Notes: generated by a model not told the origin, from the letters alone. Shown: positions 2,417-64,000, counted from the first letter of the stretch. The stretch: DNA of 64,000 nt from Neobacillus sp. PS3-12 (GCF_030915385.1 NZ_CP133268.1:2097430-2161429), one strand, 5' to 3'. Numbers and translations are program-made.

Positions 2417-3117
2417 TTGAATATTGTCGGAATTATTGGAGGAATCGGGCCTGAATCAACGGTCGATTACTACCAAACCATCATTACCAAGTTTCAAGAA
2501 AGGCTCGGCAGTAAAGAGATCCTGCCAGAGCTTGTGATTAACAGTATCAATATGTACAAAATTTTTGAGTTGATTAGTAATGGAAAAATTACGGAGTTGG
2601 TTGAGTACATAGCAGAATCAGTTCAGAAATTAGCAAGGGCCGGGCGGATTTTGCGGCGATTTCCGGAAATACTCCACATCTTGTTTTTGAACAGGTTCAA
2701 GCAAGGGTGGACATCCCGATTATCAGCATTGTTGAGGCCACATTTGTACAAACCAAGGAGTTGGGCATAGAGCGAATCGGCCTCATCGGAACCAAGTTTA
2801 CGATGGAGCACGATTTTTTCAAAAAACCCTTTGTTTCGGATCATAAAGAAATATTCGTGCCTACCCCAAACGAACAAGACTATATCCATCGAAAAATTGT
2901 GGAGGAATTGGAAAAAGGGATTGTTAAGGAAGAAACAAAAGCTAGATTTTTAGAGATCATTCAGCAGATGGTTCACCGTGATCAGCTTGAAGGAATGATC
3001 CTCGGATGTACAGAACTGCCAATGATTATCAAGAAGAACGATTTAGAGCTTCCGATATTAAACACGACAGAAATTCATGTGAATAAGATTGTTGATACGA
3101 TTTTTTTGAATCAATAA
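2417..3117 (+). pseudogene. aspartate/glutamate racemase family protein (RacX/YgeA-like), frameshifted at G-run 2642-2644 (likely 1-nt deletion, possibly an assembly error)
   Basis: two overlapping ORFs (2417-2770 and 2707-3117); after a +1 shift the translation reads LARAGADFAAISGNTPHLVFEQVQARVDIPIISIVEATF, typical of Asp racemases. Confidence 0.8.
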
Positions 3118-3174
3118 CAAGGATTGACGACTAGAAATTCGATTCTGGCCGTCAATCCTTTTTTTGGCTACGAA

Positions 3175-4174
3175 TTACTTTTCAATAACAATTGCCTGAC
3201 TTCCCATTTGTACCCAAGCTTTTTCAAAACTGCTGCGGTTCACCCTTTGATTTTTTTGACCATAAGGATTATTGATATAGATGTAGTTTGCGTCATAGCC
3301 TGTAATGACTACGCTATGCTCACTAAAGGTAATGCGGATGGTTCCTTGAGGAGTTTTCCACGTTTTAAAATCAGATACAGGGGCAAACGAACTGGTGGTG
3401 ATAACCCATACCGGCTCTCCTTGATCCACTCTCGCCAGTAAATCAGTAAACGGATGGTTTGTAAGATTAACCACTTCATCCCCACCATACTTTCTGGCCA
3501 AATTGTAGATCGGGCCATTGTATACCGCATATCCTGGCCCGACTTCCATATTTCCTACAAATCCTACATTTGGATTTCCTTTTAGTCCGTTTTGATAGGT
3601 CAATGGGACCCTTGCAATATTATTGGCTAAATCAGTTTTCGTGACATGATATCCGCTGTAATTAAGAATCATGGCTAGACTTGTGACCTCACAGCCATTG
3701 TAGAGATTTGGGGCACTCATTTGCGTAATAAGTGGTACATCTAGGATTTTGCTAGCTTGTAGTTTTGCAGCTGCTTGGGCAGCCTGTTGTTTTGCTGCGG
3801 CCTCTTTTGCTGCTTGTTCTTTGGCAGCGGCCTCTTTTGCTGCCTGCTCCTTTGCCGCTTGTTCTTTCGCTGCTGCTTTTTTGGCTGCTTGTTCCTTTGC
3901 GGCTTGTTCTTTCGCTGCCCTTTTCTTTTGCAGTCTGCTCCTTTGATGTCACTTCTTTTACCCCAGCAACTTTTACTCGTTGTTTTTCTGTTAAAGTCGT
4001 TTGCAGTTTTTTAACAAATGAAGGTTTAATAGCTAATGGAGAATTGATGTAAATCAAAACGATATCTCCTGCGATAAAAAGTAATACTATCATCACTAAA
4101 ATGAAAATTTTCTTTAGGAAAGTCTTCAAAAAAACACATCCAATTATCATGTTATCTATCTTTCTATCAATCAC
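3175..4174 (-). pseudogene. YvpB-like C39-type peptidase-domain protein with N-terminal TM helix and (AAKEQ)n repeat linker; 1-nt indel in the repeat (about 3918-3920)
   Basis: C-terminal ORF has 'ILDVPLITQMSAPNLYNGCEVTSLAMILN'; the alternative frame through 3749-3960 gives KEKAAKEQAAKEQAAKK...AAKLQASKILDVPLITQ, continuous with the peptidase domain. Confidence 0.7.
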
Positions 4175-4403
4175 CCTATCTGAAATAGCTTAATTTTTAC
4201 TTAACAAAACCACAGATTAAGCGCCTGCAGATTGATCAATGAGTTTCTCTGAAATATCCGTAAACTCCCCCCATTTTTCCGTAACTTTTAGCCATATATC
4301 CGTATCCTTCGGTCCATGCACCCAGAATCTTTGGAATGACCTGCAATTTAAAGTAAATGTTGGGGAATTAATAAATGATGTAAAACATTATTGGAGGATG
4401 CTA

Positions 4404-5270
4404 ATGTATATTTACGAAAAAAATAGTGATGTCTTTGAAACTCATCGATTGTCCAATTCAAAAAATGATACGTTCATTGAGGTTGTCCCCGAGCGCGGCG
4501 GAATCATTGCCAGTTTTGTTGTAAAGGGCAAGTCTGTTTTTTACCTGGATCGGGCTACCTTGATCGATCCTAATAAAAATATCAGAGGCGGCAATCCGAT
4601 TCTTTTTCCAATATGCAGCTATTTGAAAAATGACACGTATTCTCTTAATGGTCATCCATACACAATGAAGCAGCATGGTTTTGCCAGGAATTGCGCTTGG
4701 AACATTGCTGACGTGTCAACAGAAGAAGATTCAGCATCAATAAAAATAGAACTCCAGGACAATGAAAAAACCTATTCTCAGTATCCTTTTAAATTTAAAC
4801 TAATTTATGAATACAAACTCAGCGGGTCGACCCTTTCGGTGAATGCGACATACATCAATCAAGACGAACAGCCAATGCCTTTCTATGCCGGATACCATCC
4901 TTACTTTCAGGTCGAGGATAAGAATCAGCTTGAGATTGAGATCCCTTCTAAAACTCACACGGAATCAATCAACAACAGCTTGGTTAATAATCGATTTAAT
5001 TTTGAGCAGGAGGAAATCAATGTGTTTTTTCAGGACTTGACCGCACAAAGCTTACATATCACAGATCCTGTACAGAAGCGGAAGATTTATGTTCGCTTTG
5101 ATCCCATCTACAAACATATCGTTGTCTGGGCATTGAAGGGAAAGAATTTCATCTGTGTTGAGCCTTGGATGGCTAGTACGGATGCATTAAATACAAAGGA
5201 AGACCTCGTTTATATTCAACCTGGTCAAGAAATGAAGAGCCAAGTGGCTTATGAAGTTGAAGGTTTATAA
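4404..5270 (+). CDS. aldose 1-epimerase (galactose mutarotase-like) family protein
   Basis: family-typical sequence; GGAGG RBS 7 nt before ATG 4404. Confidence 0.8.
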   Translation: MYIYEKNSDVFETHRLSNSKNDTFIEVVPERGGIIASFVVKGKSVFYLDRATLIDPNKNIRGGNPILFPICSYLKNDTYSLNGHPYTMKQHGFARNCAWNIADVSTEEDSASIKIELQDNEKTYSQYPFKFKLIYEYKLSGSTLSVNATYINQDEQPMPFYAGYHPYFQVEDKNQLEIEIPSKTHTESINNSLVNNRFNFEQEEINVFFQDLTAQSLHITDPVQKRKIYVRFDPIYKHIVVWALKGKNFICVEPWMASTDALNTKEDLVYIQPGQEMKSQVAYEVEGL

Positions 5271-5280
5271 AAGAAGGCGC

Positions 5281-6571: not shown

Positions 6572-6585
6572 ATGGAAACTTAATC

Positions 6586-6735
6586 GTGCCCGTGCCCGAC
6601 TGTTTTCCTTGAGCACGGGCACGATTAACTCCTTTTCGTTCCCTTGCTCGCCCATTTTCCTTGAGCATCGGCACGATTAACTCCTTTTCGTGCCCTTGCT
6701 CGCCCATTTTCCTTAAACACGGGCACGATTAGCAG
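6586..6735. repeat. tandem intergenic repeat, about 62-bp unit, about 2.5 copies (family R3; related fragments near 14583 and 47032)
   Basis: direct repetition 'ccttgagcacgggcacgattaactccttttcgtgcccttgctcgcccattttc'. Confidence 0.7.
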
Positions 6736-8075: not shown

Positions 8076-8767
8076 CTAAAAAATACAATTCTGGACCCCG
8101 CATTTATCACAATTCAGCAAATTCCTGAAGTAGGTCATATCTTTAATAAGCAATGTATTGCGATGAAATTCGATAATATCTTTTTTCCGCAAGTCATTCA
8201 GAACCCTTGTCACCGTTTCTCTGGAACTTCCAATATAGGTAGCAATTTGATAATGTGTCACTTGATCGTTAATGAGAATTCCCCCAGGCACTTGAATTCC
8301 CTGTGAATTGGCGATACGAATGAGAAAAGAAGCGACAGCACCCTCTGTCCCGAACATCATAAAATCCTTAATTTTTGAACTGCTAGTTTCCAGCTTTTCC
8401 GCTACCCATTTTAGAAAAACTGATGAAATCCTGCCATTTTCCGTTAATAATTTATCGAGTAATAGCGGGTCAATTGCATAGATTTCGCAATCTGTTTCTG
8501 CGCTTGATGAACAAGAGTAAGTCTTACCACTAAAGGGGCCGATTTCTCCAAATCCATCATTCTTATCTCTTACAAAAATGGTAATCTCTTTTCCATCCTG
8601 CAAGATTTTATGAACGCGTACAATTCCTTCCTTAATCAAAAAGAAATGTGTCGGGGATCCCCCTCGATAAAAATATAGGAACCTTTTGGTTTAAATAAAA
8701 CTTTTGCATGCTGAAGCAATAAATTCTGCTCTTCTTTGCTTAATCTCTCTAATAATCGCAGCCCCAA
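8076..8767 (-). pseudogene. fnr: Fnr-like Crp/Fnr family regulator with C-terminal Cys cluster (CDKCGVQNC); frameshift at G/C homopolymers 8653-8663 (likely 1-nt deletion)
   Basis: downstream frame starts FFLIKEGIVRV...; upstream frame reads (TTG)GLRLLERLSKEEQNLLLQHAKVLFKPKGSYIFIEGDP; GGGGG RBS before the TTG at 8767. Confidence 0.7.
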
Positions 8768-8919: not shown

Positions 8920-10359
8920 TTATTTTTTTACAGGCGCTGCAGCAGCAACGGGTGCTTGTGGAGGGAAATAGCTATTTACAGCATGGTCTTTTTTCTTCTC
9001 ATTCACTTTCTCGCTCTCAACGGCTTGTTTCACTTTTTCAATTTGATTGTTTAACTCTTCGATATTGACACCTTTCTTGACCAGTTCTTCGGTTGCAAGC
9101 TCAATTGCTTTGTTCGAGTTCTCTGTTGAAATTCGTAACGAATCCATCGAACCTTGCGGGTTGTGGAAGCCTGCTGAGCTTTCCGCTGCAACAATATCCC
9201 AGAACCACTGACCTTTTCGTACGAATTCTTGCGCTTCCTTAATTTTTGTCTGGTCGGCACCTGAGGTAATCATCTTGTTTACATAATAATGCGACTTCAC
9301 TGAGATGTCTTGAGCATCATGCAAGGCAAGCATATGTGTATCTTGAATGTCCGTTACCGTATTTTTTAACTCATCCAAGTCCCTGTCGGCATGACATTGT
9401 CCGCACGATGTTTGCATTGTCTTAAGTGGAGAAGTCCACCAGTGTGAAGAAATTTTTCTTTTTCCATCAACGCGTTCATATGGCATATGGCAGTCGGCAC
9501 ATGATACGCCAGCTTTCGCATGAGGGCCAGAACTAAACGTTTCAAAGTCTGGATGCTGCGCTTTTAAGATCGGTGTCCCTGAAATATTGCTAATATAGTC
9601 TTTTTCGAACCCCTGATTTTTCGCAATCGTATCATAGTATTGATACATGTCTTCAGGCTTAAATCCTTTGCTCCATGGGAAGGTGACTTCGCTTGAGCCG
9701 GAAGCAAAATAATATTCCACATGGCACTGGCCGCAGACATAACTGCGCATTTGGTTTTTCGTTGGATTGGAAACATCTACACCTTTTGCCTGCAGTGCTT
9801 TGAAAAAGCTAGGGCGGGTTACGCGTAAATCCATGGTTTGCGGGTCATGGCAGTCGGAACAGCCGATGGAATTGTGCCCCATCGCCTCGCCTTTTTTCCA
9901 AACTTCATCGAAGCTGGTATTCCAATATTTGTCGCCCAACTGCTTAATCAATTGCGGAGCAGCCGTTGATTTACATGTATAGCAGGAACCAACCGATTTA
10001 TCGGTGATCCGTTTTGTGCTGCGAACATCTTCAAGTGCATAGATATGGCCGCGGTCTTCATTATACATAGTCGCAAATGAGTAACCATTGAAAAGGATCG
10101 GCAGCAGCGGTTCTTTATCCGGATCGAATTTGCTTCGGTTGATCGAGCCACCATATTTGGTGTCTTCCATTTTTTTATTTTTCAAATAGCTGTTGTATTG
10201 GAGCGGAAATAATTTTCCGAACGCAACGTTGCTGATTTCATTTTTCGATAGTCCGGTTGTGCTTTTGCTTTCTGCTGTCGTCGTTTGATTGCTGCAGCCG
10301 CTGATCAGCAAAAAGGCTGCTAACAGCAGAAGGTATATTCCGTAGCGGAACCTAGCCAT
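8920..10359 (-). CDS. nrfA: cytochrome c nitrite reductase NrfA (pentahaem, ammonia-forming), lipoprotein signal
   Basis: CYTCK (CxxCK) active-site haem motif plus four CxxCH (CSDCH, CGQCH, CADCH, CGQCH); 'LLISGCS' lipobox. Confidence 0.9.
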   Translation of the reverse strand: MARFRYGIYLLLLAAFLLISGCSNQTTTAESKSTTGLSKNEISNVAFGKLFPLQYNSYLKNKKMEDTKYGGSINRSKFDPDKEPLLPILFNGYSFATMYNEDRGHIYALEDVRSTKRITDKSVGSCYTCKSTAAPQLIKQLGDKYWNTSFDEVWKKGEAMGHNSIGCSDCHDPQTMDLRVTRPSFFKALQAKGVDVSNPTKNQMRSYVCGQCHVEYYFASGSSEVTFPWSKGFKPEDMYQYYDTIAKNQGFEKDYISNISGTPILKAQHPDFETFSSGPHAKAGVSCADCHMPYERVDGKRKISSHWWTSPLKTMQTSCGQCHADRDLDELKNTVTDIQDTHMLALHDAQDISVKSHYYVNKMITSGADQTKIKEAQEFVRKGQWFWDIVAAESSAGFHNPQGSMDSLRISTENSNKAIELATEELVKKGVNIEELNNQIEKVKQAVESEKVNEKKKDHAVNSYFPPQAPVAAAAPVKK

Positions 10360-10361
10360 GA

Positions 10362-10874
10362 TTAATATCCTCCTTTATTTTTCAAAAGCTCGCCTGTTTG
10401 AGGCTGCTCATTAAATTGCTTCGTTTTAAACCCTTTTCCATGCGGTACAAATCGATGGCAGGACGTACAATCGTCCTTGGCATTATGCGACACATTGGTC
10501 AATGTACTCTTGTGACAGGAAATGCAGTTTTCATTGATGACTTCTTTTGTCCGGTCACTAGCATGGATCACATTTGGAATTTTGCTTGTCGCAAATGTGT
10601 TGTAATATACATGCGTCATCCCAGCTCTGCCTTTAAAAAATAAATGTCTCACAATGTTGTCGTTGGGCAGATGGCAATTATTACACGACAATTCGGAGTG
10701 AGTGGAAGCCGTAAATGTTTGATACTCGGATTCCATGTTATGGCAGGTTTTGCAAAAACCAGGCGAATCTGTGTACTCCATCGTTTTTACGGCCAGTAAG
10801 GATAGAAAAATTCCCGCTATCACGCCGATGAGAACGATTACTTTTTTATTCATTTTGAAGAATTGTTTCACCAT
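10362..10874 (-). CDS. nrfH: NrfH tetrahaem cytochrome c (NapC/NirT family) quinol dehydrogenase
   Basis: N-terminal TM helix plus four CxxCH motifs (CKTCH, CNNCH, CISCH, CTSCH); GGAGGTG RBS before ATG 10874. Confidence 0.85.
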   Translation of the reverse strand: MVKQFFKMNKKVIVLIGVIAGIFLSLLAVKTMEYTDSPGFCKTCHNMESEYQTFTASTHSELSCNNCHLPNDNIVRHLFFKGRAGMTHVYYNTFATSKIPNVIHASDRTKEVINENCISCHKSTLTNVSHNAKDDCTSCHRFVPHGKGFKTKQFNEQPQTGELLKNKGGY

Positions 10875-10926
10875 TTTCACCTCCTGTAAAAAACTTCCCA
10901 TTTTATGTATTAAAGTACTTGGTACT

Positions 10927-11727
10927 CTAATTCCTAGTTCTTTTTCTTATCAAAATGATAATGGTGCCAGCTGCCAACAGGCTTACTGCGCTGATCGATG
11001 CAATCATTGGATAAGAATTCTTTTTAGGTGTACTCGTGCTTTTTTCATTGATGAGTTCCATTAACGGCTTTGAATCGTTTCGGTTATAGGAAAGGGTAAA
11101 ACTTTTTTCATCCCCTGCTTTTACATTTTGGAAAAAGTAGGTGGAAGTGTTGGCATCCTCATCATGACTTGTTTCCTTTGGAGCTGGAGTCAACTTTAGG
11201 TTCATTGCTTTATATGGCTGGGTAATTGTCATACTGAGCAACCCGGTATCAGCGAAACTTTTAAAATGATAATCTAGGAGTCTTTTGTTCTCTGATACTT
11301 TTAAGCTGTCAGTGTAGTACTCAATCGTAAATTTATAGCGACCCTGCGGCTTTATTTTTTCGCTGGTTGTCCAGGAAATCGTTCCTTTGGCGCTGTCGAC
11401 GGTATATTCGATTTCATGTGTTTTTGACAAATCGCTAGAGTAATCAGCCACGTACCCGATTCGGAAGTTTTTTTCATTCATGGGAAGCGGAATTTCAATT
11501 CTTCCTTGGGTTGAATGATCGAGCGTATTAACAAGTGTGCCCTGGTAACCAATCAATAACGGCGGATGTGTCTTCTTATGATCTAATGGATGGAAAGCAA
11601 ATTCCGGCAATATTTTAATCGAGAGTTCTTCCATTATTAGTGGATTTTTGGATGTTTCGGCCAAGCTAACGGATGGCAATAAAAGCAAGCTGATTATGCT
11701 GATGAGTGTCAGAAATAGTTTTTTCAT
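10927..11727 (-). CDS. exported protein with signal peptide and C-terminal TM anchor; first gene of the nrf operon
   Basis: signal peptide 'LLLPSVSLAE'; C-terminal hydrophobic segment followed by RKRTRN; function unknown. Confidence 0.5.
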   Translation of the reverse strand: MKKLFLTLISIISLLLLPSVSLAETSKNPLIMEELSIKILPEFAFHPLDHKKTHPPLLIGYQGTLVNTLDHSTQGRIEIPLPMNEKNFRIGYVADYSSDLSKTHEIEYTVDSAKGTISWTTSEKIKPQGRYKFTIEYYTDSLKVSENKRLLDYHFKSFADTGLLSMTITQPYKAMNLKLTPAPKETSHDEDANTSTYFFQNVKAGDEKSFTLSYNRNDSKPLMELINEKSTSTPKKNSYPMIASISAVSLLAAGTIIILIRKRTRN

Positions 11728-12633: not shown

Positions 12634-12750
12634 TTAATCAATATCCTGCATTTCACTTAACAATTCAGAAATTTGATAGTGAATTGCGATATAATCGACA
12701 TACTCGTATGGGTTTTCTGTTTCAACTTCAACATCTAGAATGGCTTCCAT
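12634..12750 (-). CDS. 38-aa acidic small protein (MEAILDVEVETENPYEYVDYIAIHYQISELLSEMQDID), coupled downstream of DoxX paralog 1
   Basis: AAGAGG RBS in the 33-nt gap after the DoxX stop; a near-identical ORF follows DoxX paralog 3. Confidence 0.5.
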   Translation of the reverse strand: MEAILDVEVETENPYEYVDYIAIHYQISELLSEMQDID

Positions 12751-12783
12751 AGCATTCTACCTCTTTTATAATGAATTTTTGCA

Positions 12784-13305
12784 TTACGCACTATGTTTAA
12801 CGGAATTGATAGGATCATTTCCTTTAGCGCCAAATTTATGAACAAATGGGATCACCCAGCGGTCTAAACCGATGCGGCCTGCATTGAAACCAGCAGCAAG
12901 AATGATTACACCAAGTAAAATATCTAATGGGTTGCTAGAAACTACTCCAGCAAACACATAAGAGAAGTTCATGACTAGTCCAAAAAATGCAGCAGCTGTT
13001 GTTAAGCATCCAAGGATTAAACCTACACCAACTAAAAACTCACCATAAGGAACAAGGACGTTAAAAAGGTGTGCATTTGGGATAGCAAAGTGTTTTAAGA
13101 AACTAACATATGTTGGATATTCAACTGCTTTTGTTGGACTTAGAACTGGATGCGCAGCAACTCCTGTTAAAAATCCAGTTACATCAAATTTACCGCCTGA
13201 TATTTTTTCAAAGCCCGCCAACATGAATTCATATCCAACATAAAGTCGAATGACGGTAAGAATGTAAGATGCAATTTTGTTTTCTCTTAAAAATTTGTTA
13301 AACAT
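12784..13305 (-). CDS. DoxX family membrane protein, paralog 1
   Basis: 'IRLYVGYEFMLAGFEKI' DoxX motif; 4 TM segments; AGGAG RBS before ATG 13305. Confidence 0.8.
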   Translation of the reverse strand: MFNKFLRENKIASYILTVIRLYVGYEFMLAGFEKISGGKFDVTGFLTGVAAHPVLSPTKAVEYPTYVSFLKHFAIPNAHLFNVLVPYGEFLVGVGLILGCLTTAAAFFGLVMNFSYVFAGVVSSNPLDILLGVIILAAGFNAGRIGLDRWVIPFVHKFGAKGNDPINSVKHSA

Positions 13306-13412
13306 ATAAAAGACTCCTTTCAAAAGTCAGTAAATATTATTAATGATTACACCGTTATTATAGAACTTTCGGTTGGCATTTTGTTCCGTTCCTAGGACTA
13401 TTCACATAGTAT

Positions 13413-14644: not shown

Positions 14645-15001
14645 TTACGACTGCGTAATCGTTCCTTGATGGAAAAACATTTGCCATCTTCCGTCAATAA
14701 ATTTCCAAATGGAACTTCGTAAGGTATTCTGCATGCTTGTTTCGTCTTTTATGTGATATGTCGCCAATACCGCCTCTTCTGATAAAGGATATATTTCAAA
14801 ATCAGAAAGGCTCATTTTCCTTACACTAAGTCCTCCGCCAACACAATCTTTCTTATACCAAACTCTCCCTGAACTACCGAATTCAAAGAAGTCGTCTGCA
14901 AGTAACTTGTCTAACTCAGCCGGCGTTGTTCTAGTATTAGGCTCCAACAATTGCTGCTCTAATTCAAGTAAATGCTTTTTTAACACAGACAAATTTTCCA
15001 T
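14645..15001 (-). CDS. DUF4440/SnoaL-like (NTF2-fold) protein
   Basis: sequence pattern; RBS before ATG 15001. Confidence 0.55.
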   Translation of the reverse strand: MENLSVLKKHLLELEQQLLEPNTRTTPAELDKLLADDFFEFGSSGRVWYKKDCVGGGLSVRKMSLSDFEIYPLSEEAVLATYHIKDETSMQNTLRSSIWKFIDGRWQMFFHQGTITQS

Positions 15002-15118
15002 TTTAATCATCCTTTTTATGTTAATTATTGCATTAATAATGGAAGGCTGGAAGATGTACCGTTGACACCAGACCGAAAAAACTAACGATGTGTTAAATAT
15101 AGAGCTGAGAGAGTTACA

Positions 15119-15292
15119 CGCCGCTATGATGCTGCTTCTCTAACTTTTTTCATGAGATCGGGCATCATACAGATGCTATGGTGCCGTTTCTCACGCCTTT
15201 TTCATAAGATCCGACATCATACGGTCGCTATGGTGCCACTTCTCCCCCCTTTTTAGGAGATCCAGCATCATACGAAGTCTCCCCATATATAT
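15119..15292. repeat. tandem about 52-bp repeats, family R1 (atgagatccgacatcatacagccactatggtgccacttctcc), about 3 copies
   Basis: direct repetition; same family at 24588-24812 and 35836-35882. Confidence 0.7.
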
Positions 15293-15332
15293 AAAAAAAG
15301 AAGCGTGATGTACACACGCTTCGGCAAAAAAC

Positions 15333-16667
15333 TTACTTCACAACGTTGAACGTTGTGCTTGCATTGCTTGAATTGTAGTTTGCTAATGTAGTAGTTGCGG
15401 ACACAGTAAATGTTCCACGCAAATTTTTGGCGATGAAGTAACTATAAGTATAATTACCATTTACATCAGTTTTACCGGTAACCGATGTAACGCTGCCTCT
15501 TGGATTTTTCACGGTCAATGCTACCGTTGCCCCGCTTAATGGGTTACCGTTAGAATCTTTAACAGTCGTGGTTAATTTGGCAGTATTGCCGCTATTATAT
15601 TGGCTGCTGCCAGCTGTCACAGTGGTCACGGTTTGGGCAGTAGTTTTCGTTGTTGCTGATAGATTCACCACACTGCTTTGTCCCTGATCATTTACTGCGG
15701 TCAGAGTGTAAGAATAAGTAGTATTCTCTGAGAGTCCTGTATCTGTAAAGGTTGTTGCTGTGCCTGTATATACGATATTTCCATTACGCTGCAGCTGATA
15801 AGAAGTCGCATTAGCGGATGCGCTCCAGCTTAATTGGATCGAATTAGCCGTTGAATTAGCAGTAAAGTTACTTGGTGCAGCTGGCACAGTAGGTGCAGGA
15901 GCAGTCAGGTAACCCCTTAATGCATCGATGGATGTTGGACCATAATCTAAATCTACCGCTCCCGTTACTCCTGGGACTGACCCTTGGTCACTGTACTGCC
16001 AGGCTGTCCATTGGGTCCAGCCGCCAACTGCTGGTGGCTGCGTATTGCCATAGCGTGTCCATGCGGCGATCCAAACGGGAATATCTGAAAGCTGACCACC
16101 AAAATCGTTGTACTGCTCGACAAACCAATCACCTGTATAGATCATTACCTGACGATTCGTCAGTGACTTTACCGTATCGACAAAAACTCTTCCCCAGCTG
16201 GCTATTTCATCGGAAGTTAACGTACCAGTTGAAGCGGGTTCCTCTAAATCAAGAACAGGCATAATATCCCCAAAATCGCCCATTCCTGCATTCTGCATGA
16301 CATTGACAAAATTCTGTGCTTCGGCTATTGCTTGGTCAGAGCTATAGGGTGCAGTCGGATTTGCATAGTGGTATGCACCAATAGGAAGTCCCGCTGCCCT
16401 TGCTCCCTGAACATTCGTAGCAAACATAGGGTCGGTAATGGTTGTCCCTTGGGAAGCCTTTGCATAGGCGAAGGCTATACCGGAGTTTTTAACCTGATTC
16501 CAGTCAATGGTTCCTTGCCAATGCGATACATCGATTCCATTTATATTGGCGCTTGTCGCTGGCTGCATTAATCCTGTTGCGCCAGCTACCGAATGACTCG
16601 TTAAGAAAATGCTAAACAGAAGAACTACTGAAAAAAACGGACGAATCAACTTTGCTGCATGTTTCAA
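15333..16667 (-). CDS. secreted GH25 muramidase (lysozyme) with FN3 and Ig-like (Big) C-terminal domains
   Basis: 'GIDVSHWQGTIDWNQV...' GH25 core; signal peptide after the TTG 16667 start preceded by a GGGAGAGAGG RBS. Confidence 0.85.
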   Translation of the reverse strand: MKHAAKLIRPFFSVVLLFSIFLTSHSVAGATGLMQPATSANINGIDVSHWQGTIDWNQVKNSGIAFAYAKASQGTTITDPMFATNVQGARAAGLPIGAYHYANPTAPYSSDQAIAEAQNFVNVMQNAGMGDFGDIMPVLDLEEPASTGTLTSDEIASWGRVFVDTVKSLTNRQVMIYTGDWFVEQYNDFGGQLSDIPVWIAAWTRYGNTQPPAVGGWTQWTAWQYSDQGSVPGVTGAVDLDYGPTSIDALRGYLTAPAPTVPAAPSNFTANSTANSIQLSWSASANATSYQLQRNGNIVYTGTATTFTDTGLSENTTYSYTLTAVNDQGQSSVVNLSATTKTTAQTVTTVTAGSSQYNSGNTAKLTTTVKDSNGNPLSGATVALTVKNPRGSVTSVTGKTDVNGNYTYSYFIAKNLRGTFTVSATTTLANYNSSNASTTFNVVK

Positions 16668-17607: not shown

Positions 17608-18123
17608 TTATGCACTGTGTTTAATAGATTTGACTTCTTCTTTTGCACCAAATTTATGAATGAATGGAATCACCCAGCGGTCTAGACCAATACGGCCTGC
17701 ATTGAAGCCAGCAGCAAGAATAATCACACCAAGTAAGATGTCTAATGGGTTACTAGAAACAACACCAGCCATTACATAACTGAAGTTCATTACTAAGCCA
17801 AAGAATGCTGCTGCAGTTGTTAAGCAGCCAAGGATTAAGCCAAGACCTACTAGGAATTCACCATAAGGAACAAGAACGTTGAACAGGTGTGCGTTTGGCA
17901 AGGCAAAGTGTTGTAAGAAAGAAACATATCCAGGGTATTCTACAGCTTTTGCAGGGCTTAGTACTGGATTATGAATGGCGCCTGCTAAGAACCCGCTGGC
18001 ATCAAACTTGCCGCCTGAAATTTTTTCAAAACCAGCCATCATGAATTCATATCCAAGATAAAGACGAATGACTGTAAGAATGTAAGAAGCAATTTTATTT
18101 TCTCTTAAAAATTTATTAAACAT
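17608..18123 (-). CDS. DoxX family membrane protein, paralog 2 (no downstream small ORF)
   Basis: about 85 percent identical to paralogs 1 and 3; terminator hairpin downstream. Confidence 0.8.
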   Translation of the reverse strand: MFNKFLRENKIASYILTVIRLYLGYEFMMAGFEKISGGKFDASGFLAGAIHNPVLSPAKAVEYPGYVSFLQHFALPNAHLFNVLVPYGEFLVGLGLILGCLTTAAAFFGLVMNFSYVMAGVVSSNPLDILLGVIILAAGFNAGRIGLDRWVIPFIHKFGAKEEVKSIKHSA

Positions 18124-18229
18124 ATATAAGACCCCTTTTCTTAAAAACATCATTAATAACTTGTTTACACTGTTATTATAGTTCGTTTTTCTTGAATTGG
18201 GAGTCGTTTGTTCATTATTTCACATATCA

Positions 18230-47111: not shown

Positions 47112-47786
47112 TCACAACCTATTAAATTGCGAAAACCGTTTTTCCACTTGCTCTGTGATCATGGAAATGAGTATACAAATCCCCCAGTAAATGAGAGCCG
47201 CTAATAAATATAAGGTAATAGAGTCATAGGTTCTTCCTGCAACAATCTGCGCATTATACAGGACCTCTGGAACAGAAATGACAGCTGCTAATGATGAAGC
47301 TTTCACCAGATCTAAAAAAATATTTAATAAGGGAGGAATGGCAATCCTTGCTGCTTGCGGAATGATGATTCGATATAGATTCTGCCAATAGGTTAACCCG
47401 ATCGCATAGCCTGCATCCCATTGGCCTTTCGAAATACTATTCAGTGATGCTCGCTGGACCTCAGCAATATAAGCCGCACTATTAATACTAAAGCCAATCA
47501 TGGCTGATGTTAAGGCCGATAGTTGGATTCCAATAACAGGTAATCCAAAATATAAAATAAAAAGTAATGCAAGCATAGGGATTCCCCGCATAAACGAAAT
47601 ATACAGCCTTGCAGGCCATCTTAGGAATTTAGCTGAAGAACTGCGGGCAAGACAAAGGAAAAAACCAATAATTAATCCTGCCCCCATGCTTACGATTGAA
47701 ATGAATAAGGTATAGCCAATGCCCCGAATCACAAACGGGAAGCTATCAATGGCTAGATGTAGGTTAAAGAAATGTTTCCAATCCAA
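47112..47786 (-). CDS. polar amino acid ABC transporter permease (TcyB/YckA-like)
   Basis: EAA-loop permease pattern; 224 aa. Confidence 0.85.
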   Translation of the reverse strand: MDWKHFFNLHLAIDSFPFVIRGIGYTLFISIVSMGAGLIIGFFLCLARSSSAKFLRWPARLYISFMRGIPMLALLFILYFGLPVIGIQLSALTSAMIGFSINSAAYIAEVQRASLNSISKGQWDAGYAIGLTYWQNLYRIIIPQAARIAIPPLLNIFLDLVKASSLAAVISVPEVLYNAQIVAGRTYDSITLYLLAALIYWGICILISMITEQVEKRFSQFNRL

Positions 47787-47804
47787 GGTTCGATCACCTT
47801 TTGC

Positions 47805-48653
47805 TTATTTTACATTCACATTGACAAACTTCACATTCGGTTTTTTAGTTACATCCATGCCTACAAAGAACTCTTTAGAAAGTTTCGACAGTGTACCATC
47901 TTTTTTCATCTCATCAAGAGCACTATTAACTTTACTGATTAGTTCATTATTCCCCTTCTTTGTGACAAGGGCTGAATAGCTTGGCATATAAAATAGATTT
48001 GGATTAATTTCTAAGTTGAACTGCGGCATCATTTTTACAGCAATGGATTGTAAATAATAGTCATTTAAAATAACATCTGTACGGCCTAGTGCAACATCAC
48101 GAAGATAAACATCATTTGCGACATTACCGTAAGTCACAATTTGAGCTCCATTTTGTTTCGCAATTTCGCTAAAAATAGAGGTTGCTGCCCCAGCTGCCTT
48201 TTTCCCTTTTAAATCTGCAAAACTATGAATTCCAGACTGGTCCGCTTTCCTCACAAGCATCGAGCCAAAAGAAAATTTATAGGGTTTACTAAAATCAAAA
48301 GATTTCTCTCTTTCCTTCGTCACACCAATGTCATTGGCAGCAAGATCGACCATACCGGATTCAAGGCTTGGAAGCATACCATCAAAACCCATTTCTTTAA
48401 ATTGAACCTTCAGATGTAATCGTTTTGCCACCTCTTTTGCGACCTCTACATCATACCCTGTTAAGTTATTGGTTTTATCTTCATGATAGGAAGTTGGATA
48501 TAATGTACCTGAAGTAGCGACCACAAGTGTGCCTTTATTTTTAATTTTGTCCCAGGCGGTTGTTGTCTTTTTTTTCGTTGTTGTTTGACCGCATCCTGCC
48601 AGGGCCACGAGTAATATGAAACTTAAAAGATAAATGAAACCATATTTTTTCAT
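47805..48653 (-). CDS. polar amino acid ABC transporter substrate-binding lipoprotein (TcyA/YckB-like)
   Basis: 'LAGCGQ' lipobox; SBP_bac_3 pattern; AGGAG RBS before ATG 48653. Confidence 0.85.
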   Translation of the reverse strand: MKKYGFIYLLSFILLVALAGCGQTTTKKKTTTAWDKIKNKGTLVVATSGTLYPTSYHEDKTNNLTGYDVEVAKEVAKRLHLKVQFKEMGFDGMLPSLESGMVDLAANDIGVTKEREKSFDFSKPYKFSFGSMLVRKADQSGIHSFADLKGKKAAGAATSIFSEIAKQNGAQIVTYGNVANDVYLRDVALGRTDVILNDYYLQSIAVKMMPQFNLEINPNLFYMPSYSALVTKKGNNELISKVNSALDEMKKDGTLSKLSKEFFVGMDVTKKPNVKFVNVNVK

Positions 48654-48872
48654 GTTTCTTCTCCTAAATGAAAGTAATTGGGAACATAACCAGGGGGGGC
48701 TATGTTCCTCTATGATAATGTTTAATTCTTTACCTAAAGGAGTCGGGGAACTCTTATCGGGCATCTTTACTTTATCCCATTATCCCTTTCGAAAAATTGA
48801 TAATGGTCAATAATTGCTTTTTTTCTTTGAGCTAAAAAATCGGAGAGGTCAACTCTGTCCTCTCCGATTTTT

Positions 48873-50819
48873 CTAAAGCGCTTCTTCTATTAATTTTTTA
48901 TAGTAACGAATGGAGAGGAGACCGAAGATGGAATAGAGTGCTGTGTATACGATCATGACAGCAATCATCGGTGTCCAAAGTTCTGCGCCGAAGAAGAACC
49001 ATCCGGATTGGACGGCGAAATAGCTGTGGGACAGTCCGACAACCAGCGGGATGCCGAAGCTAAACAGCTGTTTTGCCTGGATTCCTCTCAGAAGATCTCC
49101 CTGCGTGAAACCAAGTTTCCTCAGGATGGTGTAGTTTGGCTTCTCCTCTTCGCCTTCACCCATTTGTTTAAAATAGAGAATGCAACCTGAGGTCACCAAA
49201 AAGGTTAATCCTAGAAAACCGACGATAAACATCAAAAGTCCAATATTTTTCTTTTGCTTGGTGCTCAGTGCCAGCTGTGAATCTTGGACATTGTCCCGAT
49301 TAAACTTCACCTTTTTAAAAATAGCATTTGCTTTTTCTACATCTGCATCCTTATTGATATTAATCCCGATATACAATGAAGAACCCCGCTGCAGCTTTGG
49401 ATCTTTATCCTTTTTCAAGCGGTCGAACGTGGTTTCATCCACAATAGCTGCCGGAAAACTTCCATTGGTAAAATACCAGGAAAGAATGTACACCTTTCTT
49501 TGTCCTGCAAAGGAAAGCGGAAATCGCTCCTTCTTCCCTGATAATTCCATACTCCCAGAACTTTTCAGCGGCATAAACTTTTCCTGACTATTACTTAAAC
49601 CTGTAAAGAGTGCTTCTCCCGGACGAACATCTACCCCTTCAACGTCTTTGTCACTGATAACGGCCATCGTCGTCGCATTCTGCAGGGCTTTTTGTGCTAA
49701 CTTACTTGGAACCGCAATGTGCTGTAAGTTGGCCTTTGCTTGAACCACATCAATTATTTTTTCACTGTAACCAATTTGCTTGGCCTTCAAGGCTTGTTCA
49801 AATTTCGCTGCATCATGTGTGTCCATGAAGGAAAAATGGTCGGGCACCTCTTGCTCCGCTGTTTTTTCCGCAGAATAGTAGGCGATATAGCTCAGCGACA
49901 ATAATCCAATCGCCAAAGCGGACACGGTCGTAATGATGGTCAATAATAACGCATTGGATTTAATCCGAAACATGATCGAAGAAAGGGATAAAACCTCTTT
50001 AATCGTTAGATACCCATCCTTCTTTTTTCGGATCATAAAAAAGAGAAATTGAACCGATCCTTTGTAAAATAAATAGGTTCCAATGATGACCGATGCCAAG
50101 ATAAAGATCATTGAACCCAGTAATACAGAGTTTGTGGTGATGTCACCTGCAAACAATTTTGACGAGATATAGTAGCCAAGGGCGATCAGTACAATGCCGG
50201 CAATCCCGATGGCGATTTCCAACCATGATATTTTTTTCGCCTTACTCTCCGTTGATGACAAGACGCGAAATAACGCTAAAATGCTTTGCTTTTTCATAAA
50301 AATATAATTTACTGCCAGGATCAAAACAAAGATCGCACCAAAAACAACAAGCGTTTGAACGAGTGCCTTCGCAGAAAAATGTAATGTGGCAATCGCATTC
50401 ACGGTTGTAATTTTATACAGAATCATAATCAAGAGCTTCGAAACGGAGAATCCAATCAAGATTCCGACCAGTAGTGAACCGAAATAAAGAATAAAGTTTT
50501 CGGTGCTGAGGATGCGGAAAATCCGATTTTTCGTCATCCCGATTAGCTGAAATAAACCAAACTCTTTGCTGCGCCGCTTGAGAAAAATGCTATTGGCATA
50601 AAGCAAAAAGATGGTAACAATGGCGACCAGCAGGATGGAGCCTGCTTTCATTGCGGCAGCTCCTTTGATTGTCCCTTTCACCGCATCCATGGATGGGTCA
50701 TATTGCAAGGTCACGAACGCAAAATAAAGCGCGGTGCTAAAGATTAACGCAAACACATAGAGATAATAGTTTGTTACATTCTTTTTCAGGTTGCGGAGGA
50801 TAAGCTGATTAATGCTCAT
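48873..50819 (-). CDS. bceB: BceB-type ABC transporter permease (FtsX-like, 10 TM)
   Basis: 648 aa with two FtsX domains and a large extracellular loop. Confidence 0.85.
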
Positions 50820-53767: not shown

Positions 53768-54410
53768 TCAACAGTTTTCCAACTTAATTTCCGCCAGCGA
53801 ATTTACCACCTGATCTGCGATGGAAAGATCTAACCTGGTATGTTGATGCCTGATGCCGATTCCATACATGTTGGCCCTTTTGGCTGCTACCATTCCATTA
53901 TAGGAATCTTCCACCACCAAACAATGTTCAGGCGGAAGATTGAGTTTTTTAGCTGCAGTCAGAAAAATCTCCGGAATTCGGCTTCCCTGAATCAATTTCA
54001 TCTCCTGCAATGGTCACTATAAAATAACTTTTTAGGCCGCATTGTTCCAGGACCTCATTAACTCTTAATCTTTCAGATGATGACGCTAATGCACACGGGA
54101 CCCCCAATTCCTGAAGTTTACCGAGGAACGGAATGACCTCCGAAAACAGAATACTTTTAAAGTTCCATTCATAATTGTGAAAAATACCATTTTGAAATTG
54201 AATCAACTCATCAATGCTTTGCTCCAAATGGTAATGCTCTTTTAAAATCTGCCATTTGGTCCTCTTTGTGACCCCTACGTATTGGAGTTGTACATCCTCC
54301 TCAACCGTAAGCCCCAACTGCCTGAATATTTTTTTATTCAGCATCTTGTATATCGGTTCGCTGTCAATAATGACTCCGTCCATATCGAAAATGACCCCAA
54401 ATTTTTGCAC
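53768..54410 (-). pseudogene. HAD-superfamily hydrolase, beta-phosphoglucomutase-like; 1-nt indel about 53970-53980
   Basis: 'VIFDMDGVIIDS' motif I; frames join as ...[35 protein letters not shown]. Confidence 0.7.
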
Positions 54411-54485: not shown

Positions 54486-55201
54486 TTACTCCCAACTCAT
54501 TTCCAATAACTGCTTTATTTTAGAAATTTCTGTCTTGCCTGTTTGTTTGTCAATCAATGAAGTATATAAGTGAGGAATCACCGTTTCCACTCCATTGTCG
54601 AAACAAGTTTGAACAATATTATGAACATTCTCCACTGTGATTCCACCGGTTGGTTCAAAGTACTTTAATCCGGCATTGGCAGCAGCTTTAGCCATAGCAG
54701 CAACTTCGTCAAGTTTTTGTTCTCCTTTGATCGGATAAAATTTCACCGATTGAACGCCGATCTCAGCGAGCATGGCAGCAGCCATTTTGCAGGATACTTT
54801 TTCTTTATAGTCAGTACTTACAGGGCCTGTAGAGATGAATACTTGCCCCGGGTTCTGGAAGGTTCAATAACTCCGTTAATGATTGGGCTTTCCCCGAGCT
54901 CTTTTAAACGGCCCAACGTTAAACCTGCCGCAGTAAAGACCTGATTGATGTGGGCCGGCTTGGTTTGCGCCGCAACATTAGCCACTTTCTCCCACATAGC
55001 AGGATCGGCTGCACCAAGTCCCACTGATACACGAACACCATTCTCCTGATAGGTTTTGACTTGTTGAACAGCAGATTCCTCAGTTGGGAAGTTTTTCACC
55101 ATCACGCCGATTAATACCCGGTCGCCACCTACTTCCGTAACTTCTTTGGCGTTTTCTACATCTTTTGCCAGTACGTTAAAAATCACATTGCGTTTCATAA
55201 T
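54486..55201 (-). pseudogene. KDGP/KDPG-aldolase family protein (DgaF-like), frameshift at 54846-54852 (likely 1-nt deletion)
   Basis: frames join as ...INGVIEPSRTPGQVFISTGPVSTDYKEKVSCKMAAAMLAEIGVQSVKFYP. Confidence 0.7.
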
Positions 55202-55205: not shown

Positions 55206-56312
55206 TTACTTCTCCTTTGTAATGATTTTGATGATCTCATCGGAAATAATATCCTCTTGTCCATTTAAGAGTGGACGCGGATCCACTGATAAAATGCCGA
55301 TATTTGCATAGTGATCGCGCAGGAAGATGGCCAGATTCCCGGATTTAAGCATATGGAGCAGCTCCATAGCTGAATAACCGATCTTCATCTTATCCACCTG
55401 GATTTGGGCACGATAGATTTCTCTTCCCGCTTCATCTTGTTTAATGGAGCAAGTTAACCCGTCATATTCATTCAATCGATTGCATAGTTTTGTCATCCGT
55501 TCCAATTGAAGCTCAGCTGTGCTTGTTTTGGAGGAATACAGCTTTAATGCGGTGATGAGGCCGGCCATTCCTTCCTTGCCGATCTTCATTGGGCGTCCTA
55601 CACCTTTGTACTGCTTTCTGCAGGCTTCCATCAGTTCTTTTTTGCCGCAAATCAGCCCTGAGGTTGGTCCTTCCAGTGCTTTACCACCGCTGTAGATGAC
55701 GATATCTGCACCCATTTTGATATATTTTTGGAAGTCCTCTTCTGCAGCCGCATCGATAATGAGCGGCAGATTGTGGCGATGGGCAACATCCAGCATCGCT
55801 TCGATCGATTGCATCCCTTTTTGCACGGCATGATGCGATTTAATATAGAAAATCGCAGCCGTTTTTTCATTAACAGCCTCTTCGATATGATCTTTTTGTA
55901 CCTTATTGGCCTGTCCGACTTCGACGACTTTACCGCCGCCAATTCGAATCATTTGGGCAATGCTTGCACCAAAATTTACAACATGCCCTTTTTGAACAAT
56001 AATTTCATTTTGGAGGCCTTCCGTATCCGGAATGCGTTCAATCAGGGAAAGATTTTTCCCTGCAATGACCGCGGCGGTTGCAATGGCAATGCCGGCAGAT
56101 GCGCCGCAGGTCGGGCAGCCATCCTCGGCTCTTGTTATTTCTGCAATCACTTGTCCTGCGTATTCATAAAGTTCTTCAATATCGACATAATCCTGTGATG
56201 CGTCTTTCAATGCCTGCCCAATCTCATCCCTCACGGCAGATGCACCAAGAGCAGTCATTTTTCCGCTTGCATTGATAATTTCTCTTAATCCTTGCTGTTT
56301 AAAAAATCCCAT
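55206..56312 (-). CDS. DgaE-like, SelA-like PLP-dependent ammonia-lyase family protein
   Basis: 368 aa; 'YSGGKALEGPTSG' PLP-lysine motif as in SelA/DgaE. Confidence 0.7.
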   Translation of the reverse strand: MGFFKQQGLREIINASGKMTALGASAVRDEIGQALKDASQDYVDIEELYEYAGQVIAEITRAEDGCPTCGASAGIAIATAAVIAGKNLSLIERIPDTEGLQNEIIVQKGHVVNFGASIAQMIRIGGGKVVEVGQANKVQKDHIEEAVNEKTAAIFYIKSHHAVQKGMQSIEAMLDVAHRHNLPLIIDAAAEEDFQKYIKMGADIVIYSGGKALEGPTSGLICGKKELMEACRKQYKGVGRPMKIGKEGMAGLITALKLYSSKTSTAELQLERMTKLCNRLNEYDGLTCSIKQDEAGREIYRAQIQVDKMKIGYSAMELLHMLKSGNLAIFLRDHYANIGILSVDPRPLLNGQEDIISDEIIKIITKEK

Positions 56313-58554: not shown

Positions 58555-58905
58555 TTAACACATCTTTGCTGACTCAAAATGAATGGATAACAGGTATTTC
58601 TCATCATCCTGTAAGCCCTTAAGCCTGCCGCAAATTTTGGCTGCCAATTCGATGGACTCTTCTGATACCTCGGAAAACAGAACTTTATCAATCGGTGCCA
58701 ACTGTTCATTGTTAATGGAACGGTAGACCATCGCGGAAAGGTGCGATGTAAGGGATAATAACTGGGAGTCGCTCAAGTGGATCTCTTGTTCCTCCAAAAG
58801 CTCCCGAGTGAATTGGATCAGTTCCTTACATGTTTCCGCGTCCCGCTCCTTTCTAGTAATCTTTCTATATCTGTGGTATTCAATTGTTTTACACAACCCT
58901 TCCAT
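58555..58905 (-). CDS. stand-alone PRD-domain protein
   Basis: 116 aa; 'LSLTSHLSAMVYR' PRD-like helix. Confidence 0.55.
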   Translation of the reverse strand: MEGLCKTIEYHRYRKITRKERDAETCKELIQFTRELLEEQEIHLSDSQLLSLTSHLSAMVYRSINNEQLAPIDKVLFSEVSEESIELAAKICGRLKGLQDDEKYLLSIHFESAKMC

Positions 58906-62130: not shown

Positions 62131-62181
62131 AGTGCCAGGTAGTACAAAAAGACAAATATGTCTTTTGTACTACCTGGCACT
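62131..62181. repeat. near-perfect 23-bp-arm inverted repeat (agtgccaggtagtacaaaaagaca aatat gtcttttgtactacctggcact)
   Basis: read directly in the sequence. Confidence 0.75.
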
Positions 62182-62206
62182 CAAACTTAAACTAAAGCAG
62201 GAGAAC

Positions 62207-62275
62207 ACGGGGGCGGTTCGCGTGTTTCGAAACAGAGGGACGGGGGTGAAACGTTGGAACCGTCGCCCTGTTCCC
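62207..62275. repeat. GC-rich hairpin element downstream of sdhB (gggcggttcgcgtgtttc ... gaaacgttggaaccgtcgccc); related halves at 37463-37500 and 37638-37672
   Basis: inverted repeat; probable sdh operon terminator. Confidence 0.5.
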
Positions 62276-62277
62276 TT

Positions 62278-63038
62278 TTAGAAACTGCCGAAGAAGTTTT
62301 TAAACGATTGTACCGTTGTTTGCCTGTTTAAATGGGCAATGGAGGTTGTAAGCGGAATTCCTTTCGGGCATACCTGAACGCAGTTTTGAGAACCGCCGCA
62401 GGAGGTAATTCCTCCTTCTCCCATGATCCCTGCCAGTCGTTCTTCCTTGTTCATTTTTCCTGTTGGGTGAGAATTAAACAGGCTAACCTGTGAAATTGGA
62501 GCTGGCCCGATAAAATTGGAAGAGCTATTGACATTTGGACAGGCTTCCAGGCAACAGCCGCATGTCATACATTTTGATAATTCATATGCCCACTGCCGCG
62601 TTTTTCCGGCATTCTCGGACCAGGACCTAAATCATATGTTCCATCAATGGGAATCCAAGCCTTTACTCTTTTTAAAGCATCAAACATCCGCGAGCGGTCC
62701 ACTTTTAAATCACGAATAACTGGAAACGTTGACAGCGGTGCAATTCGAATTGGCTGATCAAGCAGATCAATTAAAGAAGAACAGGCCTGACGTGGTTTTC
62801 CATTAATAACCATGGAGCATGCACCGCAGACCTCCTCTAAGCACGATGATTCCCAATTAACCGGTATGACTTTTTCCCCATTCGCATTAACCGGATGCCT
62901 TTGAATTTCTATTAATGCAGAAATAATATTCATGTTCGGCCGATATGGAATGAAAAACTCCTCGGTGTATGGAGAGGAATTGACATCTTTTTGTCTTTTA
63001 ATGATTAAATGAATTTTCTTATCCTTTTCCATGATCAT
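62278..63038 (-). pseudogene. sdhB: succinate dehydrogenase iron-sulfur subunit SdhB, frameshift at T-run 62601-62605 (1-nt deletion; almost certainly a sequencing artefact)
   Basis: frames join as ...DLGPGPRMPEKTRQWAYELSKCMTCGCCLEACPNVN... Confidence 0.85.
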
Positions 63039-64000
63039 TTCCCTCCTTTTTTTGTTTTGGTATAATCACGTTTTCGCGGTTTAATGAGGGAAATATCAAC
63101 GTCTTGGTAGGAAAGCTCAGGCTGTTTGGTTTCAGAATGATAATGGGCAATAGTTGTTTTTAGCCAGTCATCATCATTCCGGTCTGGAAACTCGGCTTAT
63201 AGTGGGCACCACGGCTTTCATTACGGTTGTAGGCCCCGAGAGTAATGACTTGAGCAAGATTGATCATTCCTTCTAGCTGGCGGACAAACACAGCACTCGA
63301 ATTGCTCCATTTTGCCGAATCTTCGATATTGATATTTTTATAGCGTTCAACAAACTCCTGAAGCTTATCATAGGTCGCTTTTAGTTTTTTATTTTCTCTG
63401 ACGACCGTCACGTTAGCCGTCATCAACTCACCCATCTCTTTATGAAGCAGATAGGCATTTTCCGTTCCGTTCATTTTTAAAATAGATTCATATTTATGAG
63501 CATCTTCCCGTGTTTGCTTTTCAAAAACAGCCCCTGGAAGACTGTCCGTCGGCACTGCAAGTCCTTCCATATACTCCAATGCTTTCGGACCGGCTACCAT
63601 TCCACCATAGACTGCGGATAATAATGAATTGGCTCCAAGCCGGTTGGCCCCATGCTGGGAAAAATCACATTCTCCTGCAGCAAATAAACCTGGAATATTG
63701 GTTTGCTGATTAAGATCCACCCATAATCCGCCCATTGAATAATGAACACCTGGAAAGATTTTCATAGGTACTCTTCGCGGATCTTCGCCGACAAATTTTT
63801 CATAGATTTCCATAATTCCTCCGAGGCGAATATCCAATTGCCTAGCATCGATATGGCTTAAATCAAGGTACACTTTGTTTTCACCATTAATCCCGAGCTT
63901 TTGATTGATGCAAACATCAAAGATTTCCCTGGTTGCAATATCCCTTGGCACAAGGTTTCCGTACGCAGGATATTTTTCTTCTAAAAAGTACCATGGTTTG
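63035..64000 (-). pseudogene. sdhA: succinate dehydrogenase flavoprotein subunit SdhA (C-terminal part; continues beyond the window), frameshift about 63188-63196 (1-nt deletion)
   Basis: frames join as ...RGAHYKPEFPDRNDDDWLKTTIAHYHSETKQPELSYQDVDISLIKPRKRDYTKTKKGGK*; stop overlaps the sdhB start (ATGA). Confidence 0.85.

Follow-up and report, generated by a model that had tools for sequence, protein, structure and literature searches.

Bacterial assemblies made from long reads alone are known for consensus errors, among them insertions and deletions (indels) of a single nucleotide that split open reading frames (ORFs) and are private to one assembly. We report eleven frameshifted genes in a stretch of the Neobacillus sp. 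PS3-12 genome (64 kb of CP133268; this whole stretch is called the window below), which very probably are such consensus errors of a nanopore-only, unpolished Flye assembly and not lesions in the DNA of the organism. The window has in common with these assemblies the unpolished source, the private 1-nt ORF-splitting indels and their accumulation in G/C contexts as well as at one short palindromic motif; substitutions of the G>A/C>T type, known for nanopore R10.4 data, are present as well (PMC11170131, PMC11610573). Unlike in published R10.4.1 benchmarks, the density of indels is higher here. Furthermore, the methylation-linked errors described in the literature are for the most part purine/pyrimidine substitutions, whereas the events at CCGG, a putatively methylated motif in this strain, are single-base deletions.

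Three other systems have to be compared. 454 and Ion Torrent sequencing also generates 1-nt frameshifting indels and thus false pseudogenes; however, these errors scale with run length and strike the abundant A/T runs, which are spared in the window (0/836), and the platform used was nanopore. Decaying genomes with accumulating pseudogenes (e.g., Mycobacterium leprae, host-restricted enterobacteria) resemble the window in their high fraction of genes with disrupted frames. In these genomes, nonsense mutations, deletions, insertion sequence (IS) insertions and frameshifts are mixed, the lesions are shared within the lineage and decay has proceeded further, whereas the lesions of the window are very small indels, confined to a single assembly, in genes that are otherwise 97-100% conserved. 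In contrast to genuine pseudogenes, none of the lesions was found in any relative, and the split halves are still 91-100% identical to their counterparts. Finally, mismatch-repair-deficient hypermutators and contingency loci possess indels at mononucleotide runs, with G/C being more mutable, but their slippage occurs in long tracts; in the window, the events are found in 2-4-nt runs and at CCGG, and the implied mutational load would not be viable.

Source assembly and the eleven frameshifted genes

The window (~40% G+C) is densely packed with Bacillaceae-type genes. In a homologue search, the protein encoded by the intact gene 55206-56312 was 100% identical to the DgaE-family protein WML55060.1 of PS3-12, a free-living and easily cultured soil isolate whose genome (CP133268) consists of one contig of 5,612,023 bp. 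The strain was sequenced with MinION only (R10.4.1 flow cell, Kit 14), and the pipeline comprised Guppy basecalling, Filtlong filtering and Flye 2.9.1 assembly (>254x); in the strain's paper (PMC13577133), 'polish', 'Medaka', 'Illumina' and 'PacBio' have 0 occurrences.

Close relatives of the window were available as contigs of metagenome and Sequence Read Archive (SRA) assemblies, reached via proteins that share a 90% cluster with those of the window and stemming from several independent JGI, ENA and Logan samples. The closest of them, L015, covers 1-15 kb of the window with 99.1-99.7% nucleotide identity; L016 covers 22.3-38.5 kb (95.5-98.3%), L005-L013 cover 41-48.8 kb and 53.7-62.2 kb (97-99%), L019 covers the sdh genes (95%), and L017 and L018 are ~90% identical. 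A scan of species-representative genomes yielded genus-level relatives only (72-80% amino-acid identity), which were used solely as outgroups, and a metagenome-contig scan with the 266-aa gene 10927-11727 yielded one contig of 1.2 kb. The genes called in the relatives were translated and aligned to the window, and 55 genes could be assessed in this way. In this comparison, 44 of the 55 genes are collinear and full-length without a stop, and the following eleven change frame once:

2417-3117, plus strand, Asp/Glu racemase gene; break at 2642-2645, loss of one G (G4 to G3; GGG in the window, GGGG in L015), within CCGGGG
3175-4150, minus strand, YvpB-like peptidase C39_2 gene; break at 3918-3920 inside an AAKEQ-type repeat, gain of one C with adjacent substitutions (GCCTCTTC in L015, GCCCTTTTC in the window)
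8076-8767, minus strand, Crp/Fnr-family regulator gene adjoining nrfHA; break at 8653-8654, loss of one C (TCGCGGG to TCGGGG; TCGCGGGATCC in the relatives, TCGGGGATCC in the window)
19230-20632, minus strand, amino-acid permease gene; break at ~19662-19669, loss of one base in the T4G4 tract TTTTGGGG
44866-45491, minus strand, EcsC-family gene; break at 45346-45349, gain of two T (TTTT in the window, TT in L005)
45758-46284, minus strand, GNAT acetyltransferase gene; break at 45851-45852 near the 3' end, loss of one C (TCCGG to TCGG; GTCCGGCC in L005, GTCGGCC in the window) and with it of a CCGG site
53768-54410, minus strand, HAD-family hydrolase gene; break at 53975-53978, complex, gain of one A plus C to T (GGATCCGG in the relatives, GGAATTCGG in the window), falling on CCGGATCCGG
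54486-55198, minus strand, KDGP aldolase gene; break at 54850-54853, loss of one G (G4 to G3; CCCCGGG in the window, CCCCGGGG, CCCCGTGG or CCCCGCGG in the relatives)
58555-58883, minus strand, PRD-like gene (109 aa) of a dga-type operon; break at 58841-58843, loss of one C (C4 to C3 on the plus strand)
62278-63038, minus strand, sdhB, iron-sulfur subunit of succinate dehydrogenase/fumarate reductase; break at 62601-62606, loss of one T (T6 in L019, T5 abutting CCGG in the window)
63035-64000, minus strand, 3' part of sdhA (flavoprotein subunit), running off the window; break at 63193-63194, loss of one C (TCCGG to TCGG; CTCCGGCT in L019, CTCGGCT in the window) and with it of a CCGG site

All eleven lesions are indels of 1-2 nt (8 deletions, 3 insertions), and there are 0 nonsense mutations in the 55 genes checked against relatives. 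All of them are private to the window, and the genes are intact in conspecific contigs (95-99% identical; ~90% for the permease). With a pseudogene baseline of 2%, which is our own assumption, the probability of 11 cases in 55 genes is ~1e-8. One minimal edit per gene was sufficient to obtain a full-length ORF at all eleven loci, with 91-100% amino-acid identity to the relatives and no internal stops. Thus, insertion of one G gave a 233-aa racemase (99.6% identical to the L015 protein) and a 237-aa KDGP aldolase (97.9%, L005), removal of one base a 324-aa YvpB-like protein (98.8%, L015) and a 213-aa HAD-family hydrolase (97.7%, L005), and removal of TT a 207-aa EcsC-family protein (99.0%, L005), although a natural additional codon combined with a deficit of 1 nt would be equivalent to the +2 event in the latter gene. 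For the permease, insertion of one T gave a 467-aa ORF (96.6% identical to the 469-aa protein of L017, the sole and only ~90% identical relative here); the exact base lost is ambiguous. Insertion of one T in sdhB resulted in 253 aa (97.2%, L019), and insertion of one C in sdhA restored the conserved C-terminus (...HYKPEFPDRNDDDWLKTT...) as in L019. The KDGP aldolase gene is intact in six close relatives and the HAD-family gene in four as well as in L001.

The Crp/Fnr-type regulator gene has nrfA (8920-10359) and nrfH (10362-10901) as immediate neighbours. It is intact in L015, L017 and L018, and with one C inserted its product is identical to that of L015 in 230 of 230 positions. In the relatives, the dropped C lies outside any homopolymer, and the G4 of the window arises from the loss of this C between G's. 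No protein accession exists for this gene between WML55021.1 and WML55022.1. Its neighbours nrfA and nrfH are treated in the PS3-12 paper as genes for DNRA, in which nitrate is reduced to ammonium in a dissimilatory way; the regulator is unmentioned there (PMC13577133).

An earlier note on this DNA, made from the sequence alone, had listed at least ten frame breaks and ascribed them to assembly or sequencing error, with uncorrected nanopore consensus among the candidates. Each of the ten was recovered within a few bases by three-frame translation and subsequent nucleotide alignment to the relatives. The break at 58842 in the PRD-like gene is the eleventh and had been missed. In this gene, a chance upstream ATG at 58905 opens an ORF of 116 aa whose N-terminus is false, which masks the break; the true N-terminal 14 residues are kept in the distant homologues L001-L004 (four distant genera), the gene is intact in five relatives, and after insertion of one C the product has 109 aa and 97.2% identity to that of L005. 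The note had also proposed a comparison with close relatives and had named frameshifts shared with independently sequenced strains as speaking against an artefact; the comparison revealed no shared frameshift, i.e., the opposite. The pipeline, the privacy of the lesions, their spectrum and their repair by single edits thus bear out the attribution to an artefact.

In the stretches without close relatives (14.6-22.3, 38-41.7 and 48.9-50.8 kb), no further split genes were found, and the Pfam domains there are complete. Fragment proteins of the frameshifted genes were absent from the protein collection searched. A twelfth candidate was a difference at 46705 upstream of a MerR gene (A7 in L005, A6 in the window), 11 nt before the probable true MerR start at 46694. 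It was rejected as a frameshift: the gene is called 17 codons too long in L005, and the 124-aa form, which has a complete N-terminal helix-turn-helix, is present exactly in Logan and is also called in two JGI contigs.

The distribution of indels between coding and non-coding DNA is informative as well. Among ten sequences aligned over 8.27 kb, private indel columns number three for the window and zero for the nine relatives. Over 15 kb, the only 1-nt indels between the window and L015 are the three coding frameshifts, and the two remaining differences consist of entire repeat units and lie in spacers. Small indels confined to coding sequence are the opposite of the pattern produced by purifying selection. 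In contrast, the comparison with L016 (22-38 kb) shows the pattern of natural variation: nine indels of 1-2 nt, 9/9 intergenic and none coding. As the lesions are private and uniformly 1-2-nt indels, nonsense mutations are absent, the genes are otherwise conserved and coding DNA is no more spared than non-coding DNA, we regard the frameshifts as artefacts; the nanopore-only assembly, for which polishing is unmentioned in the paper, supports this reading.

Sequence context of the frameshifts and private substitutions

The earlier note had explained the breaks by under-calling of homopolymers and had counted eight of ten as needing one extra base inside such a run. As frame arithmetic this count holds, but a position of the missing base within a homopolymer is borne out in only ~4 of the ten cases. 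Similarly, under-calling accounts for a part of the events: about half of them (~5/11) are located within runs of at least three bases, several are outside homopolymers, three are insertions, six of the eleven sites are on CCGG, and A/T runs, by far the most frequent homopolymers, are essentially spared. In fact, G4/C4 runs are shortened in 3/113 cases, whereas A/T runs of 4-5 nt are changed in 0/836 (P = 0.0016). Runs of 6-8 nt are nearly untouched in coding sequence, and the events occur in 2-4-nt runs and in non-repeat contexts.

CCGG is present within 1 nt of 4/11 sites in the window, compared to 0.9% of positions (P ~2e-6). If the sequences of the relatives are counted too, the number rises to 6/11 (P ~2e-10), and two of the deletions destroy TCCGG. 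GGATCC and GATC were considered as alternative motifs and fit merely 2-3 sites. The frameshifts therefore track sequence context (CCGG enrichment, G4/C4 versus A/T runs) and not gene function or selection. For substitutions, the association is less clear. CCGG mutates in the relatives also, and much of its raised substitution rate is natural; a test confined to positions at which the relatives are unanimous gave 5/25 (P = 3.5e-4), which is borderline after correction. Strain- and motif-specific errors induced by methylation are known in R10.4.1/Kit 14 data (PMC11610573, PMC11170131). The bias for G/C runs and CCGG suggests motif-specific, possibly methylation-linked basecalling errors in PS3-12. 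A modified cytosine in CCGG may underlie about half of the events; what we observed is the statistical association with CCGG.

According to the explanation preferred here, the basecaller and the consensus step dropped a base, less often added one, at certain contexts, namely in short G/C runs and above all at CCGG and its flanks (TCCGG, CCGGGG, a T run followed by CCGG). The concentration at CCGG would probably result from a modified (methylated) cytosine disturbing the pore signal. Each error splits an ORF, and the annotation then lists the gene as a pseudogene or gives its protein a wrong end. The same process probably adds base substitutions to genes that look intact.

Indeed, between 53761 and 62027 (53.7-62 kb) the substitutions private to the window comprise 26 nonsynonymous and 23 synonymous changes, whereas those private to L005 or L006 in the same region comprise 11 and 39, respectively (P = 0.0018). 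The window-private changes of this region are mostly G/C to A/T. Nine of the 26 nonsynonymous changes affect residues that are invariant in four distant genera, and these are mostly radical (G>W, G>R, P>L); they include:

amidohydrolase: G129W
DgaE: G61R, E323K and P327L
KDGP aldolase: G115R

Intact-looking proteins such as WML55060.1, which is already present in NCBI, nr and UniRef, thus probably carry erroneous residues.

A second data set and the rival explanations

Logan contains assemblies of every public SRA run, whatever the platform (PMC12424806), and contigs of one of its runs, SRR29190360, match the window exactly. L020 is 100.000% identical over 45853-49457 and stops exactly at the GNAT frameshift, with its last base mismatching; its other end, at 49457, is inside TTTT|CCGG. 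We estimated by hand that the chance of one of three contig ends falling on one of the eleven sites is ~0.0015, and the break may mean that the reads disagree at this position. L022 is 100.000% identical to the window over 1-4301. The contigs of this run are 3.6-6.3 kb long, their numbers are 160 and 1401, and 4/7 window-exact proteins are absent from Logan; SRR29190360 thus looks like an isolate-scale run that is badly fragmented and noisy. Most likely, it represents the PS3-12 nanopore data themselves, and if so, the agreement of L022 with the window at two frameshift sites is not independent evidence.

Several observations weigh against consensus error as the explanation of all eleven events. 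First of all, L022 reproduces the racemase and YvpB frameshifts exactly, and if SRR29190360 consists of accurate short reads, these two frameshifts are real. The density of indels (~17 per 100 kb) is above published R10.4.1 benchmarks and even above those of R9.4.1. For comparison, R9.4.1 data basecalled with the sup model and polished with Medaka have 1 to >10 indels per 100 kb, and R10.4.1 sup data far fewer (PMC11170131). We infer that the density in the window demands a weak basecalling model in addition to the lack of polishing. The frameshifts are clumped (max-gap P = 0.024), the coding sequence from 19.7 to 45.3 kb having none, and neither the EcsC +2 event nor the complex events in the HAD and YvpB genes are deletions of the classic nanopore kind. 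The number of intact relatives per frameshift site is 1-6, and several sites rest on one relative. The substitution signal is regional, as the window differs from L015 by six coding substitutions in 6.7-15 kb, and substitutions at CCGG show no significant directional asymmetry (18 versus 10). Finally, Bacillaceae genomes typically contain a few percent of pseudogenes, and with such a background about one real case is expected among 55 genes.

The last point leads to a mixed case, which overlaps with the explanation preferred here: most of the events would be artefacts and one or two would be genuine, strain-specific background pseudogenes. We consider this possible, if rather doubtful. EcsC (+2), HAD and YvpB (indel plus adjacent substitution) depart from the simple deletion pattern, and the window does contain a lesion that is clearly no artefact, a CMD-family gene having lost ~255 bp internally (junction near 46848). 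However, indels combined with substitutions are also typical of consensus errors at motifs that are hard to call, and no individual site stands out as real, all eleven being private to the window.

If at least the frameshift at 8654 in the Crp/Fnr-like gene were real, the loss of an oxygen-responsive-type regulator could contribute to the published DNRA expression of PS3-12, i.e., to its reduction of nitrate to ammonium in air. That this frameshift exists in PS3-12 and its loss of function aids aerobic DNRA seems to us highly unlikely, and this applies equally to the wilder variant that the CCGG deletions were made in vivo by CCGG-directed modification, nicking or repair.

Slightly less credible still is that the frameshifts are real throughout and represent very recent pseudogenes of a mutator (mismatch-repair-deficient) or mutagenized lineage with unselected substitutions alongside. 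L022, being identical to the window over 4301 bp and across two frameshift sites, would agree with it, and private nonsynonymous and synonymous changes at a ratio of ~1, mostly G/C to A/T, are the pattern of fresh unselected mutation too. G/C runs are intrinsically more prone to slippage than A/T runs, which also fits a mutator. However, mutator slippage favours long runs, whereas the coding runs of 6-8 nt are nearly untouched here; there are no nonsense mutations and no event is common to any relative; the assembly method by itself predicts such errors; and SRR29190360 is noisy, has one contig broken at the GNAT site and probably represents the same nanopore data. Furthermore, extrapolation of 11/55 to the genome would imply ~1,000 broken genes, which we infer not to be viable in a freely growing soil isolate. 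The argument that a simultaneous loss of both catalytic subunits of succinate dehydrogenase is implausible, which had been made before for this DNA, is weaker than it was put: in L019, this sdhCAB adjoins genes for a DcuA/DcuB-family C4-dicarboxylate transporter and a fumarase/aspartase-class lyase, and it is perhaps not the sole copy.

Functional frame changes (programmed ribosomal frameshifting or phase-variable contingency loci) can be practically dismissed, since, even though some sites are within short mononucleotide runs, every close relative has the genes in a single frame with no conserved frameshift, so that the in-frame orthologues effectively refute them, runs of 2-6 nt are too short for phase variation, and the eleven genes have housekeeping and accessory functions without relation to each other, with no common slippery motif seen.

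Other features of the window and use of the genome

The surroundings of the sdh genes differ between strains. Immediately downstream of sdhB (62199-62278), the synteny with the closest relatives breaks off. The dga-type operon of L005 and L008 has aldose epimerase, sugar kinase and MFS genes on its flanks, and in L019 sdhCAB follows genes for a DcuA/DcuB-family C4-dicarboxylate transporter, a fumarase/aspartase-class lyase and a two-component system. The neighbourhood is thus rearranged between strains. The sdh copy of the window may not be the sole one in the genome. In L017, an IS605 OrfB/TnpB-type gene (14743-15903), absent from the window, is located between DUF218 and aldose-epimerase genes.

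The deletion in the carboxymuconolactone decarboxylase (CMD)-family gene, which encodes 132 aa in L005, has left a remnant at ~46777-46899 (plus strand). A lesion of this size exceeds what basecalling errors produce, and the strains probably differ here in reality; it is not among the eleven. The longest ORF of a kinase gene at 20924-22258 (plus strand, ADP_PFK_GK family) has a different peculiarity: its first ~50 residues match the alanine racemase domain at the C-terminal end of the latter (PF00842, with 24.9 bits slightly below the cut-off), and this N-terminal part may be a truncated alr remnant or the result of an over-long ORF.

Six intergenic tandem arrays are present (6584-6731, 15122-15273, 24615-24779, 30682-31157, ~35820-35940 and 39438-39666). 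They have a common period of ~52-53 bp with differing unit sequences, and several units contain inverted repeats (e.g., CTTCGGACA...TGTCCGAAG). The copy number varies among strains in whole 52-bp units, and in L016 an array was called as a 143-aa gene without a Pfam match. A ZMP/ZTP riboswitch (RF01750, 57.7 bits) at 27036-27113 (minus strand) is located upstream of a 528-aa AA_permease-family gene (25393-26991). Three DoxX-family paralogues (12637-13323, 17608-18153 and 33748-34411) are 84-100% identical to one another's relatives, and two of them are preceded by a conserved mini-ORF of 36-38 aa.

The genome of PS3-12 has been used to determine the gene content for aerobic denitrification and DNRA (PMC13577133) as well as coding density and gene gain and loss (PMC11767280). 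About one gene in five is wrongly broken in the window, and if the window is representative, this would extrapolate to ~1,000 genes genome-wide. The regulator adjoining nrfA, two sdh subunit genes, the permease and several enzyme genes are at risk of being scored as lost. As biology, the eleven frameshifts are not a real feature, and their value is that of a quality warning for CP133268. Claims on pseudogenes, pan-genome and metabolic reconstruction that are based on this sequence need prior polishing or re-basecalling, for which the association with CCGG is a pointer toward the choice of a methylation-aware basecalling model.

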